Shown here: positions 1 through 32,486 of the stretch, one piece after another
Position numbering within the stretch: position 1 is the first letter of the stretch
Layout: each line of letters opens with the position of its first letter
Source: a virus
Taxonomy: Duplodnaviria; Caudoviricetes
DNA length: 32,761 nt
Reading direction: 5' to 3' (one strand)
IMG/VR virus record: IMGVR_UViG_3300049781_000104
Location: 1 to 32,761 of that record
Notes under the pieces: model-generated
What the model was told of the DNA's origin: nothing
The model's database searches: none
Seen by the model: only the letters and a program-made list of their open reading frames with translations
Translations under genes and position numbers: made by a program

Positions 1-255
1 ATTTTCTAATCTCTACATATTCTCTTAGTATTTTTATTAATGCTGTATTTAACGATGCCTCATCAGCTCTGATCATTTCTGCCATCCCTGAGGGGAAAGT
101 TATAACAGTTGTATACTGATTCTTATCCCGCGCACCATCAAATTTGATTAAAAACACGTCGCCATTTTCTCTAACAATTTCAGCACAAAAAATTAAATTC
201 TCAACAGAAATTTCTTTATTGTTTTTTCCCAAATGGCAGCAATTGACCGTTCCAT
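1..255 (-). pseudogene. Frameshifted small immunity-like protein; 3' end at or just past the window edge
   Basis: ATG at 255 reads MERSIAAIWEK. One extra A in the 6-nt run at 222-227 would continue it as NNKEISVENLIFCAEIVRENGDVFLIKFDGARDKNQYTTVITFPSG...EIRK. It lies within a toxin/immunity array. Confidence 0.5.
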
Positions 256-336
256 AATTTTTTATTTATTTTGAAAGCATTTTGAGATTTCAACAACATC
301 GTCTATTATTTAAGTATGTTAGATTAACTGTAAGTG

Positions 337-688
337 TTAGATGTTATAAATATCATGCAAAAACTCAGAGTCGGGACTATTCAGTATTAAACATTCACTA
401 GTTGACTCTTTCTTATACCATAATTCCAAACGCCCTTTTCCAGGGCCTTTTTCTATAGCCCTAACTCCATCTATAACACAGAAAAAACCAAACCGCACTC
501 TGAACAGACTCTATCATAATTTGTTTAACCATGTCTTTGCCTGACTCATCCAAGCTATTATAGAATGCCGACATTTTTTTTAACCCCTCACTAGGAAGTT
601 TTCCTTCCTCAAATTCCTTTATTAAACTATTAATAGTAGACTGCTCTACTGCAGTCCTAATTGCATTTACAAATTCCTCATTATTCAT
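337..688 (-). pseudogene. Frameshifted putative immunity protein
   Basis: ORF 461..688 continues in another frame near 490 as GFFCVIDGVRAIEKGPGKGRLELWYKKE...EFLHDIYNI, stop at 337-339. It has an ATGA overlap with the upstream ORF. Confidence 0.6.
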
Positions 689-960
689 CGAATGCCTTTT
701 TTAAATGACTCGGGATATTTTGTTTTATTAAGTTCAATTATTTTAAGTAACACCGTTGACGGAATAGGCGTACAACTTCGCAAATATAAGATTTCACTTG
801 CCAGCAATCCTCGTGCACTGTTTATGTCTCTAAATCTTACAGCTCGAATGTTTTTATGAACCGTCAAAGGCAATGCTATGGACACTCCTGTGTTAATATC
901 AAACTTCTTTATCACTCTTACTGCATCCCTAGCATTAGGTATATGATGTAAATCCAGCAT
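685..960 (-). CDS. Stand-alone HNH-like (LDLHH..H) domain, paralog of the upstream toxin tip
   Basis: The likely start is ATG at 960 (MLDLHHIP), 1 nt after the toxin stop at 962-964. It aligns colinearly with the toxin tip. Confidence 0.65.
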   Translation of the reverse strand: MLDLHHIPNARDAVRVIKKFDINTGVSIALPLTVHKNIRAVRFRDINSARGLLASEILYLRSCTPIPSTVLLKIIELNKTKYPESFKKGIR

Positions 961-961
961 A

Positions 962-2010
962 TTATTGTGTTTTAGGTAGTTTGGGCGCTCTCGGCGGCCT
1001 CTCATATGAGGTCGGGAACTGAGCTTTGGCCATATTTAGCAATCGTTCTATGTAGGTATTTGCTACACCAGCTTGTCTCAAGTTTCATGCGTCATTTCCC
1101 AAAAGCTGCCTTGGCGTACCAGTATAAGTTCCTTTAGTCCTTGGTATCTCCCTATGAGTAACTTCATTCAAAGCAATTGCTGTACCTGTTTCTGGCCTAT
1201 AGCCAGGTATAACTTGTCCCGCAGGGTGTTTTTGTGGCACATGATGCAGATCCAAATGATCTCCAACATCTGATCGATCCTGCAAGTCTTTATACTCACC
1301 TATATCATATTCCTGAACTGGCTGTCTGTTCTGACTATTAGCTGCATTCGCCAATACTATAGGAGCTTGATTTATTTCGGCATTCACAGCTGGTTTCAAA
1401 ACAACAGCTCACTACCAGAGACAGCAAACCCTGTTGATAAATTCCCTCCACCTCCTTCTGGTAGAGGTAAAGAAGAAACTACTAACGCTCCTCCATTAAA
1501 ACAACCCGCTTCTGCCCCATAAAAACCAAGGCTCTCAGGAGTCTTACGCATAAGACCAAAAGAGAGTAATCTATTACCTCCTTCCACCATCCCTGCTGTC
1601 GACGCACGAAGGTTGCGTAAACCCTGGCGAGTATCTCCCTTGATTTAATCCCAACTCTTAGGTTGTATATTGGCTACTTTATCAAAATTCTCTCCTGTTT
1701 TAGCGGCATCTCCCCCCATTCCATACATTAATAGCATATAGGTGGTTCTCGCACTTGTATACCAACCTGGAGGATCTGAGTAATTCCCTAATACATCACT
1801 GTATAATATCGGACTATTATTGAGCGTCGCATATTCACTGATTCCTGTTATAGGTTCCGGATCAAGATTCCACCTCCTTCCTATCCTTGAATCATACTCC
1901 CAGAACTGCGCAGTATAATTATTATCTCCTACCTCACTCGATTTTTCTTGCCCATTAAACCCATAACGATAACAGTCCATAACCAACATTTCTACAGCTC
2001 TGCAGTTCAA
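962..2010 (-). pseudogene. Orphan Rhs C-terminal toxin 1 with HNH-type nuclease tip, disrupted
   Basis: Rhs core YRYGFNGQEK...YDSRIGRRWNLDP...SPILYSDVLG. In-frame TAA at 1645, frameshift near 1400, in-frame TGA at 1085, natural stop at 962. The tip reads DHLDLHHVPQKHP...AIAL...H. Confidence 0.8.
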
Positions 2011-2208
2011 CTAGCCCCACAAAGCGAAATAGTAAGTCTCTTCTGCATCATTGAACTTTCCTCATAATCTCCAAAATGACCAATTATCTCAAGAACTTTT
2101 GACCTCATATAACTAAAACAGCTGGCGGATTATTACCACCAGCCGTATATTTTATTCACATATCTTTCTAGATAGTTTCAATCAAAAACCACTATAAAAG
2201 TGACAATA

Positions 2209-2626
2209 TCAAATTACCACTACTAACGCTTTTGAAAACAAGCCCCTTATTTTATAAACATCCGTAAAGAATTGTCGAGCTTCTTTAATCTTTTCTCTCC
2301 CAACCTCAGGAACAATAAATTTAGCTTTAAAAACATCGTTTATAAACTCCTCTGGTAATAATGACCAATATCCCCGCTTCAAATAAAAAGGCAAATAACT
2401 TGGCCATATCCATTTCCCGTCTGTATAAAACACAAGTGGTGCAATAAATGTATTCCTATCAAAAACCTCCTCCAAAAACGCAAATACTCTAACACCGTGC
2501 TCCAAAAAAAACAACATTATCAATATAATCCTCTTTTTCAGTCGGAGCTGCTAGATCTTTAATATAGCTTCCAATTTTCAATCTGAAATTTTCATGATCT
2601 TTTATTACCCCAACAAATTTTATCAT
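2209..2626 (-). pseudogene. Putative immunity protein (YTDGxWxWP type), frameshifted in an 8-nt homopolymer
   Basis: ATG at 2626 (MIKFVGVIKD...) joins ORF 2209..2523 through a frameshift at the A8 run 2504-2511. It starts 8 nt after the toxin-fragment stop. Confidence 0.65.
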
Positions 2627-2634
2627 AAACTAAA

Positions 2635-3139
2635 TTATCGTTTAGATAATAACATTTTACCAGTTTCATGGGCGTCATTACTAAATACATGAAACTACAT
2701 ACCAAAATTAATGGCCGCATCAGGGTCACCTACCCTCCATATCCAAAGACTTCCGCTTGGTGCTATAACTAGAGCCCTGCCAATTTACTCAATTGAGCTG
2801 CAGTTCCAATATTCAGCTTCCCTGCATAACAAAACATTAATCTGATTTTGTCTCTGCTGATACCCGCCGCTAACATATCCTCATATAACTGCCGAACTGT
2901 AACAAAACTACCTGCGCCTCTAGTAAATGCCAAACCACTCTTATCTCCATGAATCACCACATTATACCAGCCCCTTTTTGAAACAAGATTTTCAGCGGCC
3001 TCCAATGTAAGAGCATCTGATCCAAAATACTTAATGTTTTTGCTAAATTCATTGCCCTGCTCCATGCCCAGATTACACCACTTTGAACAAAAATAGGCAT
3101 AAGCCCTTCCATAGCCTCTATACTCGACGCATTCGACAT
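2635..3139 (-). pseudogene. Degenerate toxin tip, caspase/C80-like cysteine peptidase fold
   Basis: VVIHG...IRLMFCYAG...AAQLSKL, then after a frameshift VIAPSGSLW. The His-Gly/Cys dyad spacing is typical of caspase-like toxin domains. No Rhs core is retained. Confidence 0.55.
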
Positions 3140-3166
3140 CCAGTCCGCGGTCTCAGGGGATTACGA

Positions 3167-3403
3167 CTAAAGCATCTCCTTCCTAAATCCAGCATTAGCA
3201 TACATCAACTTACCTATAGACGTCCAATCATAATTGCTTCGCTCAGTTGTTACCAATCCGTCAAAATACAGATTTAACCCAGAAGTCATTCCATTAGCAC
3301 TCTCAGGATCTTCTGGATGCAAAACAATATGTGTCGTTGTAGTTCTTTCCCCTCTATCGATTACTGTATTTGTCTGTATTTCAATCAAAACAAAAATCAA
3401 CAA
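3167..3403 (-). CDS. Hypothetical protein or fragment (possible orphan immunity remnant)
   Basis: 78-aa ORF co-oriented with the array; weak TTG start; no recognised motif. Confidence 0.3.
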   Translation of the reverse strand: MLIFVLIEIQTNTVIDRGERTTTTHIVLHPEDPESANGMTSGLNLYFDGLVTTERSNYDWTSIGKLMYANAGFRKEML

Positions 3404-3419
3404 CTCCTAAAAGGTATAG

Positions 3420-3437
3420 CTGACGATCTATCGTCAG
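3420..3437. terminator. Intergenic hairpin, possible terminator after the FGE gene
   Basis: ctgacgat-ct-atcgtcag inverted repeat. Confidence 0.35.
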
Positions 3438-3515
3438 TTATCAAAAAATACAACACAATATTATAGCATATTAAATCTATCACAACCAATTACACTTTAT
3501 TATTAATCAGATTGA

Positions 3516-4268
3516 TCAATAAGTACCGGAATACTGAAACACCAATCTAAACCCATATGGCTCTATATATTCGTTTACACAACCAACACTTTGATTAATA
3601 GGTGAAATACACTCCTCCATACTTTGATTATAGTCACCCCCAACAGCATCCATAAAGCCATTATTGGACATTGTACTTATAGGGTCTACAAAAATCGACT
3701 GTCCCGAATCTGCACTTACATCTGCCGACATCTCAAGAATATTTCCGAACATATCATATAACCCCCAAGGGGACGGCTTCTTCAGTCCGACTTCATGAAT
3801 CTTACCGTTACTATTTTCTTTATACCACGCAAAATCGGAGAATGTAGCATTTCCCAACACATCCCAGAAAAAGGGATCATCACTCAGAATTCTAGAAAAA
3901 CATCCATATCTCATTTGCATGAAGTTGGGTAATGAAAATAGTACTTGATCCTGTTTATCACCGCTTTTCAGCTCTAAAGTATTTAATCTATCAATAAAAG
4001 ACAAAACCATCTGAAGGTCCACGGCATATACCGGAGTTCTCGCCGAAAATGTACCAAATTCGAAGAAATCCTCTCCCATAACGCCTTTCCACTGACCATT
4101 CGTGACCGATGTATTTGACATCCAGAAGCCTTTTTCAAAAATAACCTCGACTGTATCTCTTCCTGTTTTCTGCCACAAAGAAGTTCCCCTTGTAATCTGC
4201 GTATAACGTCCAGGAGGGCACCAAACAAATGTTAGTTCTTCATCAAAGCCGATTTTAAAAGATATCAT
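3516..4268 (-). CDS. Formylglycine-generating enzyme (FGE-sulfatase/SUMF1) domain protein, candidate immunity protein
   Basis: Motifs FWMSNTSVTNGQW, FAWY, HEVGLKKPSPWGLYDMFGNILE and GFRL. It lies directly downstream of Rhs-CT 2. Confidence 0.85.
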   Translation of the reverse strand: MISFKIGFDEELTFVWCPPGRYTQITRGTSLWQKTGRDTVEVIFEKGFWMSNTSVTNGQWKGVMGEDFFEFGTFSARTPVYAVDLQMVLSFIDRLNTLELKSGDKQDQVLFSLPNFMQMRYGCFSRILSDDPFFWDVLGNATFSDFAWYKENSNGKIHEVGLKKPSPWGLYDMFGNILEMSADVSADSGQSIFVDPISTMSNNGFMDAVGGDYNQSMEECISPINQSVGCVNEYIEPYGFRLVFQYSGTY

Positions 4269-4339
4269 AGCGTTAATATTTGACCAAAATTAAACTGGTA
4301 AATCTATATATAGAGTATACCTTGATATATTACATACTT

Positions 4340-5437
4340 CTAATTACTTGACGGTCGGGTAAATTCTATATTCACTTTGTCCCATGTTATACCATCAGCA
4401 TTCAGTTTGCCTCCAATACGTTTCACTTGAGTAAAACCTCTGTCCTTCACCTGCATTCCTGTAAAAGTTTGCAACGCCGCTTCTTCGAGTGGTATATTTC
4501 TGCGCAACAACTCATTTAATTTTGCCAAATTTGATCCATATGACCAATTGCCAATAATTGCTTTTATTTTTCCTCCCTTATCAAGGACCTCGTTATATGG
4601 CATGCCAAACACTTCCCTTCCCGTAGGAGTACCTTTATGAGTATAACGTTCTCCTGTAAGCGGATTCATTAGATCTAACGCAGTCGCAAAGTATCCATTT
4701 GATTTTGTAAACGTTGCTAAGCCTCCTATAAAAGACTTTCCGCTTTTAGCATGCTCAGCTGGCACGTCATATCTAGCATTGATCTCATCTGAGCTTTCAT
4801 TGTCGCTTGTTTTATCACTCGTACTAGATAGTATGAAAAAACTTGTTCGGACGGATGAAGTAAATACATTAAGAGTAGATTTTGTTAGTACTGACAAACC
4901 ATTAGAAGAATATGCTAATCCTGGTGACATCCCTGAGCCACTACCTCCACCTGGTATTGGTTTAGGACTTATTCCTACCACAAAACTAACTTGATCATAT
5001 GGTTTCTTATATTGCTCATTTAATCCAATATCTTCAGCAGATCTGTTTAAAAGACCAAAACTTAAATCACCGAGGTAACCGTTCATCGTTGCCAATGTTG
5101 GAGCCATAACCGCTGCTTTCAACACTTTCCAATTTTCTTTACCAACATCAGTGTAGAAGGGAAAATCTATGACGGCGGTATATATATATTCCTTCCATCC
5201 TTTACGCTCCGGATCACCTGGGCCCATACGAAATACATCAATAAACTTAATTGGATTATTTGCTGCAAAAACATAAACACCAAGATCCGGATATTTGTCA
5301 GCTAACGGGTCGATAGACAAAAACTTACATGTTCTAGAATCATATATTCTAGCTCCAAAATCAATCTGATTCCCCGCTCCCTTCACCTCATTGTCATTCT
5401 CCTTCCCATTAAACCCATAACGATAACCGCGTAAACC
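4340..5437 (-). CDS. Orphan Rhs C-terminal toxin 2 (open frame, no proper start; tip of unknown activity)
   Basis: The frame extends 5' of the called ORF to GLRGYRYGFNGKENDNEVKG, followed by DFGARIYDSR...FLSIDPL...NNPIKFID. Confidence 0.85.
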   Translation of the reverse strand, partial: GLRGYRYGFNGKENDNEVKGAGNQIDFGARIYDSRTCKFLSIDPLADKYPDLGVYVFAANNPIKFIDVFRMGPGDPERKGWKEYIYTAVIDFPFYTDVGKENWKVLKAAVMAPTLATMNGYLGDLSFGLLNRSAEDIGLNEQYKKPYDQVSFVVGISPKPIPGGGSGSGMSPGLAYSSNGLSVLTKSTLNVFTSSVRTSFFILSSTSDKTSDNESSDEINARYDVPAEHAKSGKSFIGGLATFTKSNGYFATALDLMNPLTGERYTHKGTPTGREVFGMPYNEVLDKGGKIKAIIGNWSYGSNLAKLNELLRRNIPLEEAALQTFTGMQVKDRGFTQVKRIGGKLNADGITWDKVNIEFTRPSSN

Positions 5438-5469
5438 CTACGCCTACTAAGTGTAGTAGTCATATAGAA

Positions 5470-5495
5470 AAGCGCCTTCGACATAGTAGGCGCTT
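5470..5495 (-). terminator. Intrinsic terminator-like hairpin between cassettes
   Basis: aagcgcct/aggcgctt 8-bp stem running into a short T tract on the minus strand. Confidence 0.5.
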
Positions 5496-5653
5496 CAAGA
5501 ACCGATATCTTTCAATGAATATATTACCTTGAAAAAGAATAACTGGACGCGCCAATTTCACGAAACCCACTTTACATATCCAGTAAATAGCTCAACGTCT
5601 AGCATTAAGGAGCTGACAAGCTCTGTTCATATACAGCACTACGATAAAATGAC

Positions 5654-6124
5654 CTATTGTTTTCCACTGTTAGCTGTTCTCACTTTACGCAAACGTCTTC
5701 CATTGGAGGATTTTCCATTCTTATAGGTATCCAAAAAAACCGGAGTGGTATCTACTTGAAACTCATCTATAAATATGTCATCATTGCCTGAATTTCCAAA
5801 GAATACCTTTTCCTTCATATCCTCAACTATCCACATGCCCTCACGAAGCAAGTACAACCTGTTCGAAACACGGTACAAACCTAATTGTCCACACTCGATT
5901 GGTAGGCTGTCCTTATCTGACCTTTTCAAGAAAAAAAATTTCCGTGAACCTAAAAATATAATTGTATCACTAGATTTACTATCGTTAGGAATCCACCGTA
6001 CGCTATCATACTTATTGAATAATACAATGCTTTTGTTCTTAAAAAAAACACTCGCAGTATCCTGTGAAAATGTCCTCTGAACAAGAAACAACAACATGCT
6101 TGAAATTAAAACACCTTTTATCAT
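5654..6124 (-). CDS. Putative cognate immunity protein with Sec signal peptide (C-terminus possibly truncated)
   Basis: ATGA overlap with Rhs-CT 3; hydrophobic N-terminus MIKGVLISSMLLFLVQRTFS-Q. Confidence 0.65.
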   Translation of the reverse strand: MIKGVLISSMLLFLVQRTFSQDTASVFFKNKSIVLFNKYDSVRWIPNDSKSSDTIIFLGSRKFFFLKRSDKDSLPIECGQLGLYRVSNRLYLLREGMWIVEDMKEKVFFGNSGNDDIFIDEFQVDTTPVFLDTYKNGKSSNGRRLRKVRTANSGKQ

Positions 6125-6990
6125 TTTTTTATGGCAATTGAAACATTAGTATTAGCTTCGGATGGAGTTTTTTTAGTTCTCGTGAACCACTCCAATTTAA
6201 TTTCAGAACCATATTTATTCTTCAATAGCTCTTCGTAAGACGAGATTACCTGTTTGTCCAACGGATACGGCGTCCCTATTTGGATATACACCTTTGGATT
6301 TTCAATTCCGGAAATATGCTTCAACTCACCTAATTGAATTCCAATTTGTTGATCAACAGACTTTATTCCATTCCAGTTAAAAGAAATACCACTTACATAT
6401 CCAACACTCTCTCCCATCACATATCCATCACGTGAAAATTCTTTTCCTTTTCCTACAACACTACCATTATCTTCTACAGTCGCTTGCACTGCTTCATTTC
6501 TTTTGGCAGTCGTATTACCTGCCACTACAAACTTCTCAAATGCGTTAAGTTCCTTATCATTTTCTTGAATGTCCGGTTTCTTTCTGTTAAACTCGAACCC
6601 ATTTTGAATACGTAATACAGCTTGGTTTTGATCATTTAGGGTCCCATCTGAAAATTGGATTTCCAAATTCTGTACTTTATTATCCCTACTCGCCACCCTA
6701 GTGATAGTCAACTTGCCAGAGTTAAGCACTTTTTCGTAAATCACCAACATCTTTTCCAGCCCGTCTAAATCAATACTCCTGATCACGTCATTTTCAGCAA
6801 ACGCATAAGTACTATTCCATGGATAATCCGCTCTTAACGGATCCACACTCAAAAACTTTCCTAACCTCGGATCATACACCCTCATCCCATAATCCTGCTG
6901 ATTCCCCTCACCCTTCACCTCATTATCATTCTCCTTCCCATTAAACCCATAACGATAACTCCCTAAACCCCACTGCCTGTCCGGTTGCAA
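6121..6990 (-). CDS. Orphan Rhs C-terminal toxin 3
   Basis: Canonical Rhs-associated core YRYGFNGKENDNEVKGEGNQQDYGMRVYDPRLGKFLSVDPL...IDLDGLE followed by about 210 aa of unique tip. Confidence 0.9.
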   Translation of the reverse strand: MQPDRQWGLGSYRYGFNGKENDNEVKGEGNQQDYGMRVYDPRLGKFLSVDPLRADYPWNSTYAFAENDVIRSIDLDGLEKMLVIYEKVLNSGKLTITRVASRDNKVQNLEIQFSDGTLNDQNQAVLRIQNGFEFNRKKPDIQENDKELNAFEKFVVAGNTTAKRNEAVQATVEDNGSVVGKGKEFSRDGYVMGESVGYVSGISFNWNGIKSVDQQIGIQLGELKHISGIENPKVYIQIGTPYPLDKQVISSYEELLKNKYGSEIKLEWFTRTKKTPSEANTNVSIAIKK

Positions 6991-7083
6991 CAGCCCTGCA
7001 CATTATTTTACTCAAAGAACTGACCCTAAGATATAGTTTTTTCTTTCATCTGTATTTCAACTGAAAGAAAAAAATAACACGCA

Positions 7084-10250: not shown

Positions 10251-11909
10251 TTAACGGGTACCGATTCCTCCCGTACCGGTTGTTTGCATTTTTACCACGC
10301 GCAACACTTTAACTGCCCATAATAGCTGGTCATAGGTGTCGGAAAAGTGGGTGGTGGTGCGCTGATCCATATTGGCATCAGATTCGGGATTCTTGTCTTT
10401 GAACGTCTTGCCTTCTTTGATCTTAGCTGCAGCTTCCTTAATAGAACCAGCAAGGTAGATACATCTCTGCTTATTGATGCCCACAGGCATGGGTTTACCT
10501 TCTTTCGTTGATTTAAGGATATTCTTTATTTCCTCATACTTTATATAGTGTGATGGCGTATCTCCTGTGTAAATACTTTTAACGGCCCATCCATTTTTGC
10601 GTAATGTTTTTTCTACAATCTTATAGTATTCATCTGCCTCGACGCGCTTGCCGGTAGCAGTATGATCGTATGGATAATAGACAAGCTTTTTACCGTGATG
10701 TTTATACCTGTCGCAGAATTTTTGTACCGCATCACTTAACCCTTCTGGTGCCAGCGTATATACTTCGTCATTGGTCCACAAGCCCTTCGGTGCTTTACCG
10801 TTTCTGGTACTTATCTGGCTAACCGGAATAGGAGCAATGCTGTGTTGATAGTCGGCTGTAATGATAAACGGGGTATTGTGCTCTATATCCTGCATATCAG
10901 AGTATTCATGGACCTGATCATCCCAGTCTGGATAAAATACAACTTCCGGCCTTTCGGGGTCATCATTCAAATAGGTAATCCTGAAGTCATAATCACTTTT
11001 GCTGTTGCGGAGCTTGTCTCTTAGCCACTTTTCTCCTCCCAGGTTGTTTATATTCTCCAATGACGAAAATTCACAGTAGAATACCATATCTTTTCGTAGT
11101 TCGTTCAGAATGTTTTTCTTCTGCCTGATGACTTTTCTTAGCTCTGCTTGCTTTTTCTCGCCGGATTTATAATAAAGCTCGATGTCACTATTTAATGATA
11201 TCTGTATTGTAATAACAGTGTTTATCAACTGCCAATCGTTAAGCTTTCGTTTATCCAAGATGTGTTTAATGTGGCTGTAAGGCGCTCCCTTGCCGGGTTT
11301 CTTGTCTGAAGCGAAGAACTTAGAGAGGTATTCAGATTGATGTTTGAAATGTTGTTCGTTACCACGGAATATTGGGAAAATTTCATCTTCCAGCTGCCTG
11401 ACATCCATAAACTTGAATTCATCGAATACCCCCCATTGTATTGATAACGCGTTGGATGATGCCTTGCGCGCCAAACTGACCATCTGAACAGCGGTTCCGT
11501 CTTTCCAGATCATGCAGTGTTCATAGTCCAATACAGGAATGAATGGTTTGGGCCAGTTAGCTGGTGGCCGTTTTGAATATACATAATCAATCCCCTCCTG
11601 GTAGCCCATGTCTGCCAATGCTTTCAGCAGTGGGGGCATTGTATTTGCTTCCAGATGTTCATAAGAGAGACCTATAATTGCCCCTGATGATTGTGGCATT
11701 GAATTGACCATGTCAATTACATACGGTGCGATCCCACCTGATGTTTTTCCAGCACCGCGACCTGCAATGGCATATGTCTCGTTAGCCCGCACCAACCGCA
11801 TAAGCATTTGCGGCCTATTCATTTTATACGCCTTTACGTTTTCAAAGACCTGCTCAGGTGTAGGAAGATTAGAGCTCTTCATCAGACAACGCATTTTCAA
11901 GGTCTTCAA
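10251..11909 (-). CDS. terL: Terminase large subunit (true start possibly 11882)
   Basis: Walker A AGRGAGKT, Walker B WGVFDE, and a C-terminal nuclease region (ADYQ, YDHT, HFSDTYD). Confidence 0.9.
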   Translation of the reverse strand: MKTLKMRCLMKSSNLPTPEQVFENVKAYKMNRPQMLMRLVRANETYAIAGRGAGKTSGGIAPYVIDMVNSMPQSSGAIIGLSYEHLEANTMPPLLKALADMGYQEGIDYVYSKRPPANWPKPFIPVLDYEHCMIWKDGTAVQMVSLARKASSNALSIQWGVFDEFKFMDVRQLEDEIFPIFRGNEQHFKHQSEYLSKFFASDKKPGKGAPYSHIKHILDKRKLNDWQLINTVITIQISLNSDIELYYKSGEKKQAELRKVIRQKKNILNELRKDMVFYCEFSSLENINNLGGEKWLRDKLRNSKSDYDFRITYLNDDPERPEVVFYPDWDDQVHEYSDMQDIEHNTPFIITADYQHSIAPIPVSQISTRNGKAPKGLWTNDEVYTLAPEGLSDAVQKFCDRYKHHGKKLVYYPYDHTATGKRVEADEYYKIVEKTLRKNGWAVKSIYTGDTPSHYIKYEEIKNILKSTKEGKPMPVGINKQRCIYLAGSIKEAAAKIKEGKTFKDKNPESDANMDQRTTTHFSDTYDQLLWAVKVLRVVKMQTTGTGGIGTR

Positions 11910-12447
11910 ACGGGATTTCCTCTGCGTATGCTTTTCGCTTCATGTACCTTTGGGCTAAAACAAGCGCTTGATCAGCGGTCATGCCTGTTTCAATCTGCCC
12001 TCCCTGTAGTACAAATTGTAACAAAGTCGGGGTAGAGCCATTATCCGTGATATCTTCCGGCATTGCAAGTACAGCCTTGGTATATTCGCCGATAAACTTT
12101 GGTAGAAAGGGCGCCAACAGTGGGTTGGTTTTGGCCTCTTGTATTAGCAGTGCGATTTGTTCAATGTGGTGACCTAACAGATACTTTTTGCTTATATGCC
12201 TGGTGCTGCCAAATATTTTATGGGTCGCGGTAATGTCTCGTTCAGCTGTATATTTAGATACTGCAAACCTCGTAGAAATCATTGAGATGACATCCTGATT
12301 TGTGTACTTACGAGAACGTATTAATCCGTCTGCAAATGTGCATCGTTCCAGTATCTTTTCTTCGTCAGCATGCAGCGTAATATCGCCCTTCAGCAGAAAC
12401 TGAATTATTCTTGCGTGTGCACTGCCTTTATTCCCTTTTTCAGCCAT
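11869..12447 (-). CDS. Putative terminase small subunit
   Basis: Overlaps terL; HTH-like segment VISMISTRFAVSKYTAERDI; appropriate size and position. Confidence 0.6.
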   Translation of the reverse strand: MAEKGNKGSAHARIIQFLLKGDITLHADEEKILERCTFADGLIRSRKYTNQDVISMISTRFAVSKYTAERDITATHKIFGSTRHISKKYLLGHHIEQIALLIQEAKTNPLLAPFLPKFIGEYTKAVLAMPEDITDNGSTPTLLQFVLQGGQIETGMTADQALVLAQRYMKRKAYAEEIPFEDLENALSDEEL

Positions 12448-13109
12448 TATTCTTCGATATCTATTTTAAGCAATGATTTATAGCGCTTGACCTCTTCCTC
12501 ATATTGTTTGAGTTTTGCCGCGAACCTGGGGTTGTCCGGATATTTTGCGCACTTTATCCGATAATCTCTGACATATCGTTGTGCATTAGCAAGCTTTTGA
12601 GGCCACTTTAAAGGATCGGTGACACTCTCAGTATGCCGGGTGTCCGGAAGCCTGTTGTAGGCAAGGTAAAAGTCCCTTTCTGCATATATTTCGTCACATT
12701 GATCATCGAGGTCTAAGATCCGATGGGCGGCTTCTCCCCTTTCCGAGACCGTTGTCATATCCCAAAGGCGTTGGCTGAGACTCATCATTTCGGCAAACTT
12801 AGGTCGCCATCTTGCTTTAAGTGCGCTTATAACTTTGTCCGAAATTGGCTCTTGGGGCCATGAATTCAGGTCAGTTTTGGGAGGGGGTTCCTGGGTACGG
12901 GAGCTGTTTGATTGGATGGGTTCTACAGCGTCCTTTTTCGTATTAATCAGCTCCTGCAGCGCCGCCAACAGCCTTTTTCGCTTATATTCCGTCTCATGTT
13001 CCTGTGTGAACAGCTTCTTCAATGTGTCATCGTCTCCAAAGGTCAGGTAGAGTGTTACCCCTACCTGATAATTCCGGCCTCCGTTGATCCACTTTCTGAT
13101 AACATCCAT
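12447..13109 (-). CDS. Phage hypothetical protein, first gene of the packaging operon
   Basis: Likely start MDVIRKW at 13109, which fits the late-promoter spacing; TAATG coupling to the next gene. Confidence 0.7.
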   Translation of the reverse strand: MDVIRKWINGGRNYQVGVTLYLTFGDDDTLKKLFTQEHETEYKRKRLLAALQELINTKKDAVEPIQSNSSRTQEPPPKTDLNSWPQEPISDKVISALKARWRPKFAEMMSLSQRLWDMTTVSERGEAAHRILDLDDQCDEIYAERDFYLAYNRLPDTRHTESVTDPLKWPQKLANAQRYVRDYRIKCAKYPDNPRFAAKLKQYEEEVKRYKSLLKIDIEE

Positions 13110-13150
13110 CCTGCCAATTTCGGCGGATGTTTTAACAATTCGAAGGACAG
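13110..13150 (-). promoter_or_regulatory. Putative late promoter A (CTGTCCTT motif)
   Basis: CTGTCCTT starts 41 nt before ATG 13109. Confidence 0.7.
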
Positions 13151-13347
13151 ACTTTACATAGGCGTTGAGCAACGACGACGCGGGAGAATTGTATTATCTC
13201 TTGCATAGACGGTTTACGTTTCTTGAACGCGCGGAGCGCAATTGCTGATGCTGACAAAATCATTGCTAGTTCATCCAGATCTATATCGGATTCAGGATAG
13301 TCCTTGCGGAACTTTAATTTTTCAGTAATGTTTTCCATAATTTTCAT
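13132..13347 (-). CDS. Small hypothetical protein (68-71 aa) with its own putative promoter; candidate antisense target
   Basis: ORF preceded by CTTG-N21-TGAATTTG (Bacteroidota -33/-7-like) and by the 18-bp repeat at 13368-13385. Confidence 0.55.
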   Translation of the reverse strand: MKIMENITEKLKFRKDYPESDIDLDELAMILSASAIALRAFKKRKPSMQEIIQFSRVVVAQRLCKVCPSNC

Positions 13348-13367: not shown

Positions 13368-13385
13368 AACTCCAGTATTAAGTGC
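13368..13385. repeat. 18-bp exact repeat aactccagtattaagtgc, copy 1 (copy 2 at 31252-31269)
   Basis: Direct sequence comparison. Confidence 0.95.
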
Positions 13386-13468
13386 AATGGATTTTTCGCA
13401 AATTCAAAATGGTTAGTTGGGAACGAACAAGGTTTAATGCATGCTGAACATTTTTGGTCTTGACTAAT

Positions 13469-13726
13469 TTATTCAATTAGTCTGATATTAAGAACACTTA
13501 TTTTCTTAATCATCCATTCAAAAAGGAACGGCCTGGTCATGTGAAGCCGGAATCCGGCTGCTGTCATGGCGCTGTTAATGTCATGGATATTGAACTCCAT
13601 CCCCAATGACTCGACAATCTTAATTGAGATGTCCTTCGAGCTTAGGAAAAGTTCCGCGTCCGTGATATCAATAGCAGGGACATAGAACTGTTTAAATATT
13701 GTAACAAGTTTGGATATATCGTCCAT
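13469..13726 (-). CDS. Phage hypothetical protein
   Basis: 85-aa ORF starting 1 nt after the upstream stop. Confidence 0.7.
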   Translation of the reverse strand: MDDISKLVTIFKQFYVPAIDITDAELFLSSKDISIKIVESLGMEFNIHDINSAMTAAGFRLHMTRPFLFEWMIKKISVLNIRLIE

Positions 13727-21436: not shown

Positions 21437-21478
21437 ACCCACGAAGGTATCAGGATGTCACGTTCTGTAAAAGGACAG
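21437..21478 (-). promoter_or_regulatory. Putative late promoter B (CTGTCCTT motif)
   Basis: CTGTCCTT starts 42 nt before ATG 21436, with a TACCTTCG -7-like element. Confidence 0.7.
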
Positions 21479-30932: not shown

Positions 30933-31151
30933 TTAGTATTTCAGTAGTTCGGAGACGGTTATACCGAATGCGGAGGCTATTTTATGCAGATATGTAAGCC
31001 CTGGGTTTATCAGGCCACGCTCTATTTTACCAATATATCCAGGATCGAGATCCGCTTCATGGGAAAGCTGCGCCTGTGACCAACTCCGCTCGTCACGAAG
31101 CTGCTTTATCCTGGCTCCAAATTGTTCCTTTAATTGTTTATCGCTCGGCAT
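30933..31151 (-). CDS. XRE-family HTH regulator, controller (C) protein-like
   Basis: FGARIKQLR...SQAQL...YIGKIERG..NP.L...KIA pattern; 72 aa. Confidence 0.92.
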   Translation of the reverse strand: MPSDKQLKEQFGARIKQLRDERSWSQAQLSHEADLDPGYIGKIERGLINPGLTYLHKIASAFGITVSELLKY

Positions 31152-31176
31152 ACAAATGCGAACATATAAAGACTTA

Positions 31177-31230
31177 TTACAATTATACCTATATGATTAT
31201 ACAGGTATAATTGTACAGGTATGATCATAC
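31177..31230. promoter_or_regulatory. Four tandem 12-bp palindromic operators, 14-bp period, between divergent promoters
   Basis: TTACAATTATAC, ATATGATTATAC, GTATAATTGTAC, GTATGATCATAC. Flanking -7-like elements are TATGTTCG (-, 31159-31166) and TATATTCG (+, 31243-31250). Confidence 0.8.
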
Positions 31231-31251
31231 TTATTTTTTCTGTATATTCGA

Positions 31252-31324
31252 AACTCCAGTATTAAGTGCGGGTAAGCACTTACAATGCATACCGAACCCG
31301 GCTTTTCAAAGCAGGGTTCATTTT
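31252..31324 (+). ncRNA. Putative small RNA or attenuator leader
   Basis: Starts right after a -7-like element. Hairpin taagtgc/gcactta, then terminator-like gaaccc-g-gctt..aagc-a-gggttc-atttt. Its 5' 18 nt are repeated at 13368-13385. Confidence 0.6.
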
Positions 31325-31385
31325 AAAATTCATTGCTAAATCGCTGATAACCGGCACAAACTGTCAACCAGTTAAACAAACAAAT

Positions 31386-31667
31386 ATGAAAATCAATCCC
31401 AGGGCAGAGGCCCTAATAATAGCCGAAATAACCGGATCTATTACCAGCGAAGAAAGCGCTGAATTAGCGGAATTGAGGAACAAGTCTTCTGCGGTAAAAG
31501 CCTTATCAGAGGGCATGCACATGGTACTGGACCCAGACATTGTAGAGATAAGCAAGGTCATGGTTACTGCAGAACAGATCATTGATAAGGGAAATGCGCA
31601 ATTGGCTAAGATGCGCAGGGTTAAAGGTTTTCTGGCCCGAATGCTGAAATTTAATGCCTCAAAATAA
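31386..31667 (+). CDS. 93-aa protein resembling the N-terminal sigma-binding domain of Bacteroidota FecR-type anti-sigma factors
   Basis: Likely ATG at 31386 after an A-rich leader; LII..ITGSITSEESAEL pattern; no TM or periplasmic part. Confidence 0.5.
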   Translation: MKINPRAEALIIAEITGSITSEESAELAELRNKSSAVKALSEGMHMVLDPDIVEISKVMVTAEQIIDKGNAQLAKMRRVKGFLARMLKFNASK

Positions 31668-31742
31668 AACAGGAAAAAGCCCCTGAACGTACAAGTTTCT
31701 TCCCAAACACCCTTGATATAACTTAATCCAAAACAATTCACA

Positions 31743-32189
31743 ATGAAAGACTTACAGGAACTTGAACAGCATGTAAACGAAACAAATATTTCTCTTTCTC
31801 AAAAAAATTGGATACGGATCGTCCCCCCTAATCAGCTTAGTGAAGCACATACCAGGATGGCTGAAGTAAGAAAGGAACTTTTAGACGCTGTTTTTCACGC
31901 TGTTGATGTCATTGACGGTATCCAGTGGATAATAGATTATGCTGCAGAAAAACAGCCAGGAATGCCCGCTAAATCGGTGAATCCCGAAGGGATACCGTAT
32001 TCTACTGAAGACCTACTGAAAATGCGTTTGAAATCACTTTATGCAATAGCACCTGCCATTGTCGTAGATGACGTAATTAAGTACGTTAATATGACCCTCG
32101 ATGAATACAGACAGGAGATTGCAAAATTGATGTACGCTAACAGTGAGTTGAAAAGAGCGAATAAAGCATATGAACGGCAGCTCCGGTAA
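31743..32189 (+). CDS. Hypothetical protein
   Basis: 148-aa ORF, A-rich leader, C-terminal coiled coil. Confidence 0.7.
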   Translation: MKDLQELEQHVNETNISLSQKNWIRIVPPNQLSEAHTRMAEVRKELLDAVFHAVDVIDGIQWIIDYAAEKQPGMPAKSVNPEGIPYSTEDLLKMRLKSLYAIAPAIVVDDVIKYVNMTLDEYRQEIAKLMYANSELKRANKAYERQLR

Positions 32190-32400: not shown

Positions 32401-32486
32401 AACTCAAAAAAAGGGCCGAAGCCCTATGAATATTATAAATTCCATTGCCCCCTGTGTATCGGGAGCTGGTACAATTAGATACAGAA

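Follow-up and report, generated by a model that had tools for sequence, protein, structure and literature searches.

A putative small RNA encoded at about 31253-31324 on the plus strand of a virus record with a soil Bacteroidota prophage begins with an 18-nt sequence that recurs exactly, and in antisense relation, in the leader of an accessory gene at 13132-13347 on the minus strand of the same record. The whole record of 32,761 bases is referred to here as the window. With a probability of roughly 0.5, the arrangement is predicted to be a terminated antisense RNA against the leader of the accessory gene, similar in action to OrzO and IstR-1 and encoded far from its target. A first-pass annotation had read the site as a repressor-controlled small RNA; the promoter, the fold, the target family and the predicted pairing agree with that reading, but conservation does not.

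The prophage part of the window runs from 7773 onward, where a tyrosine integrase gene comes after a tmRNA 3' fragment. The fragment gives a weak Rfam match and is matched by 70 of 201 family genomes, and a search with the tmRNA-end pattern recovered 0 genomes. On the minus strand, the integrase gene is followed by D12 methylase, packaging, tail, portal-like, capsid and S49 protease genes. ORF 10251-11909, which matched no family, presumably encodes the large terminase, as judged from its position and motifs. We infer a Chitinophaga-like host because the best named relatives of the 93-aa product of ORF 31386-31667 are Chitinophaga proteins and that of the capsid is a Chitinophagaceae protein. 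Among the capsid matches, P0004-P0009 have identities of 58-73%. The host side of the window (1-7000) holds an array of C-terminal fragments, which we take to be Rhs-like from their motifs, and downstream small ORFs, with a common repeat of 23-34 nt.

Both copies of the 18-mer lie exactly where they had been reported, at 13368-13385 (copy B) and 31252-31269 (copy A), on the plus strand and in intergenic DNA, with a gap of 17,884 nt. Even with as many as 3 mismatches allowed, the window yields no further copy, and the 18-mer is the only repeat of at least 15 nt with copies more than 300 nt apart in 7773-32761. The earlier estimate of a 1-2% chance for such a repeat is about right: a non-local repeat of at least 18 nt appeared in 7 of 400 simulated 32.8 kb windows under an order-1 Markov model and in 13 of 400 under an order-3 model. 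This frequency of 2-3% and the very many windows scanned speak for pure chance; against it, only 4.5e-5 pairs of 18-nt repeats are expected among the 1231 intergenic start positions, and one copy occupies the head of the predicted transcript, which leaves coincidence hardly credible.

A uniform null understates the background because DNA-level intergenic repeats of 15-30 nt occur in related elements. Among 10 such elements, non-local intergenic repeats of 15-33 nt are present as late-promoter copies, attachment sites and dispersed repeats, and a pair 17.8 kb apart in G001 is a duplicated late promoter. The copies of promoter repeats in related prophages have the same orientation and the same distance to the gene start, unlike the copies of the 18-mer, which are opposite in orientation relative to their two transcripts. 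The opposite orientation fits the requirement for pairing and would not be shown by a promoter element. One provirus record (G003:C1) carries many copies of a dispersed 20-28 nt intergenic repeat at several sites. The exact 18-mer has 7 matches in genome_contigs, each of them a lone copy in an unrelated taxon with dissimilar flanks, and 0 matches in viral_contigs. With 2 mismatches allowed, 103 genomes gave 13 matches, below the reversed control, so that the 18-mer does not belong to the dispersed repeats of the host.

Two further DNA-level explanations bear on the pair itself, and either is very improbable. A recombination core, which would make the 17.9-kb block excisable, accords with the direct orientation of the copies on the DNA and with the presence of the tyrosine integrase; yet 5 related prophages keep the same gene order across the block without such a repeat, excision would separate structural from packaging genes, and the contigs of the source run show no joint. 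An RNA guide, with which a host Cas9/IscB-like protein would target DNA, has a precedent in the RNA-guided repressors described for prophages (10.1101/2023.11.30.569447), but no guide-protein gene was found among the scanned ORFs of the window, Rfam gave no match, and a stem encloses the 3' half of the putative guide.

Copy A stands just behind a TAnnTT-type -7 box (31243-31250, plus strand) of a rightward promoter. Four operator-like 12-mers (31177-31230; starts at 31177, 31191, 31205 and 31219) with a 14-bp period lie upstream, next to the minus-strand gene 30933-31151, which encodes a 72-aa XRE/HTH_3 protein (best PADLOC match Control_protein, PDLC03665, 1e-15) and has its own -7-like box at 31159-31166. 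Two operator-like sites 14 bp apart are seen in L125 and likewise in L124, which is the same locus as L083; the 12-mer pattern was drawn by eye from the same loci (window, L124, L125). In L083 and L125 the spacing between the last operator and a similar -7 box equals that of the window. The closest XRE modules, with 74% (L083), 52% (L125) and 30% (L094) identity, all keep the XRE gene, the operators and the box, and in 3 of 3 a small ORF stands behind the box in place of the hairpin unit. Since the flanking parts are kept while the filling of the slot differs, the rightward promoter is probably real and the hairpin unit lineage-specific. Homology between the window and L083 stops at the -7 box, which places the 18-mer at the very head of the transcript. 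A search with the XRE alignment over 24 of the 64 parts of metagenome_contigs returned at least 80 loci, with identities of up to 51% among the matches listed.

The proposal of a C-like repressor beside the unit is supported by the conserved divergent promoter, the controller-like XRE protein and the operator-like layout. The rightward promoter and the last 12-mer (31219) overlap in the -33 region, and for this reason the XRE protein probably represses the RNA, as judged from predicted sites. Controller proteins are described as activating as dimers and repressing as tetramers (PMC5333194). In run X1, which may be the source sample, 31018-31376 forms a contig of its own that spans the 5' half of the XRE gene, the operators and the entire candidate RNA, with a depth of 20.5 versus 11.9-13.6 for its neighbours; a second identical copy of this segment may be present in the sample. 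A 15-kb contig bears a paralog of the 93-aa ORF. In L131 (1790-2060), another XRE-divergent promoter is separated from a ligase-like gene by about 250 nt that contain several hairpins but lack a long ORF.

Flavobacterium promoters have the box at -12 to -5 in the description of PMC9723704. By this standard geometry copy A occupies -3 to +15 and the transcript would start at 31255, which leaves three matched bases untranscribed and a toehold of 4 nt, a point against the antisense reading. Calibration of the transcript start from cis-pairing leaders gave few matches (5 from 1909 boxes). The predicted folding energy of the unit is -25.3 kcal/mol (z = -4.62), and 1 of 200 shuffles folded as well. 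Its first hairpin, previously given as 7 bp, comprises 11 bp with a 2-nt bulge (31259-31288) and sequesters the last 11 nt of the 18-mer at its 3' end; the unpaired 5' toehold that had been described is present, but it has 7 bases at most. Hairpin 2, which folding places with its ATTTT tail at 31294-31324, resembles a terminator as had been noted, but the T tract is short, with 4 T only (31321-31324), which likewise counts against the antisense reading. A hairpin directly after the tRNA-Arg gene of L319 is similar to hairpin 2 (83% over 36 nt, in reverse reading), a resemblance at chance level as homology; the type of hairpin fits a two-way terminator. The Rfam scan of both 18-mer sites gave no match at E up to 5, and no homolog of the unit was found in 103 genomes, viral contigs or GenBank phages. 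A match of 21/22 to the 5' part of the RNA in G529 (E 0.01, 1 of 103 genomes) overlaps open frames and was treated as chance.

The first-pass annotation also raised the opposite polarity, in which the leader at 13.4 kb would open hairpin 1 and allow read-through into 31386-32189. Pairing would indeed open hairpin 1, and IsrK is described as an RNA that serves both as sRNA and as leader (PMC4825925). Folding gives no support to this proposal, however: hairpin 2 remains intact in the cofold and with the first 17 nt blocked, blocking of the 18-mer leaves the terminator in place, and no antiterminator is predicted. We consider a reversed polarity most improbable.

On the minus strand, copy B is part of the leader of ORF 13132-13347 (71 aa) and complements copy A. 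It had been placed 20-30 nt upstream of the ORF; an upstream position stands, but the distance is 21-38 nt from the ATG at 13347 or 30-47 nt from the ATG at 13338. By the rule given in PMC7366714, the A-rich context of the latter is the more favourable, and a start there would put copy B, 30-47 nt upstream, outside the initiation region. An imperfect -7-like box, TGAATTTG (13399-13406, minus strand), was recognized by eye upstream of copy B, with a predicted start at 13394; its conserved A is mismatched, which weakens the antisense reading. The duplex of 20 bp that had been claimed was reproduced, with 18 Watson-Crick and two additional G-U pairs, and the next best helix with the target leader has 10 Watson-Crick pairs. 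The predicted pairing is favourable, with net gains of -22.1, -20.6 and -17.0 kcal/mol for RNA starts at 31252, 31253 and 31255; with the start at 31255 the duplex consists of 15 + 2 pairs, and for a start at 31258 the gain drops to -10.6 kcal/mol. The target bases opposite the toehold have a low unpaired probability (0.1-0.6), which also counts against the antisense reading.

With both promoters placed, the 18-mer could instead be a shared DNA operator, bound by a protein that represses the rightward promoter (at -3 to +15) and the target promoter (at +10 to +27). Such positions relative to promoters are usual for operators, and related prophages do carry identical DNA repeats of 15-19 nt at promoters. 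On the other hand, the two sites, which are asymmetric, are identical at 18 of 18 positions, no degenerate third copy exists within 3 mismatches, the XRE sites are different 12-mers with none at the target promoter, the 18-mer is not enriched in the 103 genomes, and a second intergenic copy is likewise lacking for the leader of the homolog in G459. We regard a shared operator as unlikely.

Copy B and the target ORF, together with the imperfect -7-like box, belong to about 320 extra bases that the window has in the late operon, and the 85-aa ORF 13469-13726 (minus strand) marks the upstream edge of this insert. Of five related prophages with the same gene order, four have a 76-98 aa ORF that resembles 13469-13726 by eye and leads directly to the TGTCCT motif, and the fifth has another gene in this slot; none of the 5 has the 71-aa ORF. 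The late-promoter-like motif (TGTCCT, 20 nt and a second box; 13114-13149, minus strand), also seen in L146-L150, precedes ORF 12447-13109 and the packaging genes and overlaps the last codons of the target ORF. The motif is conserved ahead of late operons throughout this phage family and also stands at 21477 and 30547 (minus) of the window and at 129365 and 147168 of G001:C4.

Judged by its homologs, the target ORF is a member of a real gene family. Intact homologs are present in 2 of the 103 genomes of G146's genus, G459 and G491 (E 5.8e-8 and 1.2e-6), and a frameshifted one in G523. The homologs in two chromosomes lie directly behind hipA-type genes (L314, 139-1432, and L266), one of them frameshifted: that of G523 directly follows a HipA-N/HipA-C pair, and that of G491 follows fragments which look similar by eye. 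Viral contig L316 also matches the family and was not counted as independent. The family profile found 0 members in 351 family genomes and none in GenBank phages or plasmids; weak profile matches at 11 translated loci are C-termini of TPR-like proteins and were rejected. Word-index protein searches with the 71-aa and 85-aa ORFs returned only the queries themselves, and single-protein locus scans found nothing. The predicted protein of 68-71 aa is modelled as three helices (mean pLDDT 78.7), and its fold has no match at E <= 0.001 in the viral or PDB libraries. It has no Pfam, PHROG or PADLOC match, hence none to a defence family, and the highest 19-residue hydropathy in three family members (1.21, 0.61 and 0.98) indicates no membrane segment. 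The toxin, abortive-infection and lysis-lysogeny roles that had been suggested for the circuit find no support; the target is not of the membrane type and matches no defence family.

Relatives that keep the genes and lack the complementarity had been named in advance as evidence against the proposed circuit, and part of this pattern is observed. G459 carries a related prophage, bounded by a 26-bp repeat, with most of the structural genes, an integrase of 52% identity and the target homolog in another slot; within this prophage (150,001-192,500) the target leader forms no helix of more than 14 Watson-Crick pairs. Elsewhere in that genome no significant partner was found (best E 0.26), and the genome search with the G491 leader gave a best E of 0.04. 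The XRE slot of G459 holds a different protein with a long self-pairing leader. A folded 140-nt element (L265, 1220-1360; z -4.57) lies between a DUF4468-like gene and the G459 target homolog, and its pairing with the G459 target leader is weak to borderline, with 29 of 500 shuffles as good; the homology between the leaders of the window and G459 is borderline as well (101 of 2000 shuffles) and was given no weight. Judged by G459, the target gene can be present where a long trans partner is absent, an argument against an obligatory toxin-antitoxin pair; with one case compared, at about 45% protein identity, a recent regulator is still compatible with this. No relative examined has both halves, each half occurs alone in relatives, and the absence of a second example of the pair also speaks against the antisense reading.

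In this lineage the two halves seem to have been acquired recently, and copy A was probably copied from the target leader. It is possible, though doubtful, that nothing more than the copying took place: a piece of the target leader would have entered the XRE-divergent slot upon loss of the ancestral ORF, the match would be without function, and the hairpins would merely damp read-through into 31386-32189. The match begins 3 nt before the predicted transcript start, both sites are lineage-specific, and G459 keeps the gene without a partner, all of which suits such a relic. Furthermore, copy B continues beyond its first 17 bases with five bases that are found again at 31283-31287, behind an inverted insert of 14 nt. 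A duplex that uses these bases, in a three-way junction, is less stable than the simple duplex (-41.0 vs -53.2) and was rejected as a pairing mode; copying with template switching fits the recurrence better than pairing does. A relic, however, needs a lucky landing at the head of a transcript, in antisense and ahead of a terminator, and the remainder of the two regions aligns only patchily.

Under the antisense reading, the unit at about 31253-31324 would be transcribed as a small RNA terminated at hairpin 2. Its 5' toehold of 4-7 nt would invade the target leader and unzip hairpin 1, and pairing over 15-20 bases with the leader of 13132-13347 would lower expression of the target. Since the site lies outside the start-codon region, silencing would need RNase III-type duplex cleavage, which is the probable route, or blocking of a standby site. 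OrzO uses its first 18 nt, of which 15 nt suffice, needs RNase III, and acts on a site 73-91 nt upstream of the start, as described in PMC3919570; Bacteroides GibS also pairs through a 5' seed (PMC7366714). The RNA would be made when the XRE protein is low, as when the phage has just entered a new host or has been derepressed, and would then keep the accessory gene off even under late transcription running through it, with the gene on in the settled lysogen. We tentatively extend this to a three-part timer of recent origin within one prophage, in which a controller of the restriction-modification (RM) type would switch off an antisense RNA captured from the target leader; the gene, silent during entry and lytic growth and on in the lysogen, would encode a factor for defence or growth arrest, of a kind that otherwise follows hipA-type loci.

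Comparison with known systems is made on the features given in the cited sources. The candidate shares with OrzO/zorO, IstR-1/tisB and OhsC/shoB a short, structured form and 18 nt at the 5' end that perfectly complement a leader; the pairing site lies well ahead of the start codon, and the encoded protein is small (PMC3919570, PMC4041452). The perfect complement of 18-21 nt to an mRNA leader, typical of such type I toxin-antitoxin systems, is thus present; an adjacent divergent RNA gene and a small hydrophobic membrane toxin are not. OrzO, IstR-1 and OhsC are described as divergent from and adjacent to their toxin genes, whereas the gap here is 17.9 kb; their toxins are small and hydrophobic, whereas the candidate target has no membrane segment; and here it is the RNA that is under putative repressor control. 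The candidate RNA, if functional, is predicted to work like OrzO but falls outside that class, because it is not adjacent to its target and no membrane toxin is involved. RalA/RalR of the rac prophage is similar in that a prophage RNA has a short repeat match (16 nt) to the mRNA of a small non-membrane protein; unlike the candidate, RalA is described as pairing in the coding region, with a tested DNase toxin as its target, and no homology to this system was found (PMC4041452).

C4 of P1/P7 and Sar of P22 are RNAs of about 70 nt from temperate phages and resemble the candidate, which is predicted to silence a gene of the same phage; in contrast to it, they are described as acting at the ribosome-binding region of an antirepressor message from the same locus (PMC12197685). 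The C4/CI/Sar features searched for here, namely an Rfam match, an antirepressor family match and an a/a'/start-codon layout, were not found. C4-like self-pairing leaders were seen in L146, L149 and L150, upstream of accessory ORFs, and in L268 (1440-1640): a segment right after the -7 box is followed about 100 nt downstream by its complement, and at the start codon by a second copy. These leaders match no Rfam family.

The 72-aa XRE protein and the tandem operator-like sites between divergent promoters recall the controller (C) proteins of RM systems as described in PMC5333194, and both the match of a small XRE protein to controller models and the tandem sites upstream of its gene were found. 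Unlike RM controller systems, no restriction enzyme lies beside the XRE gene, and the divergent promoter would drive the candidate RNA and the FecR-N-like ORF; no restriction endonuclease or methylase is linked to the XRE gene among its neighbours, the D12 methylase being 21 kb away. With GibS of Bacteroides thetaiotaomicron the candidate shares its phylum, its action in trans and a long 5' seed, but GibS is described as conserved, with a single-stranded seed that pairs across the start codons of host genes; the same source describes the Bacteroidota as lacking SD sequences and obvious Hfq/ProQ (PMC7366714). Within the literature covered, which included few subscription papers, neither a base-pairing RNA of a Chitinophaga phage nor a controller-driven distant antisense RNA was found.

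If the antisense reading is true, the window holds an OrzO-like perfect-seed antisense RNA whose target is unlinked and which is wired to a controller protein, in a phylum in which few base-pairing RNAs have been characterised. Since each half is found without the other in relatives, it would also offer a snapshot of the birth of an antisense regulator, by copying of a leader piece behind an existing promoter. Its generality is low, as for any single case that is not conserved.

Downstream of the unit, ORF 31386-31667 (plus strand) encodes a stand-alone 93-aa homolog of the FecR N-terminal segment with relatives among Chitinophaga FecR proteins; it was found in 0 of 401 family genomes, and an alignment search of metagenome_contigs found nothing. 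It is probably co-transcribed with the 148-aa ORF 31743-32189 (plus strand), which has no family match. Stand-alone FecR N-terminal segments lie behind XRE-controlled promoters in mobile elements in the window, in L083 and in L094, and could be decoy anti-sigma factors that act on host ECF sigma factors. Further on, a 23-bp hairpin-plus-T-tract (32407-32429) stands between a 74-86 aa ORF and a Cro-like gene; it is identical in L083 (9918-9940), similar in L125, and is probably an early attenuator.
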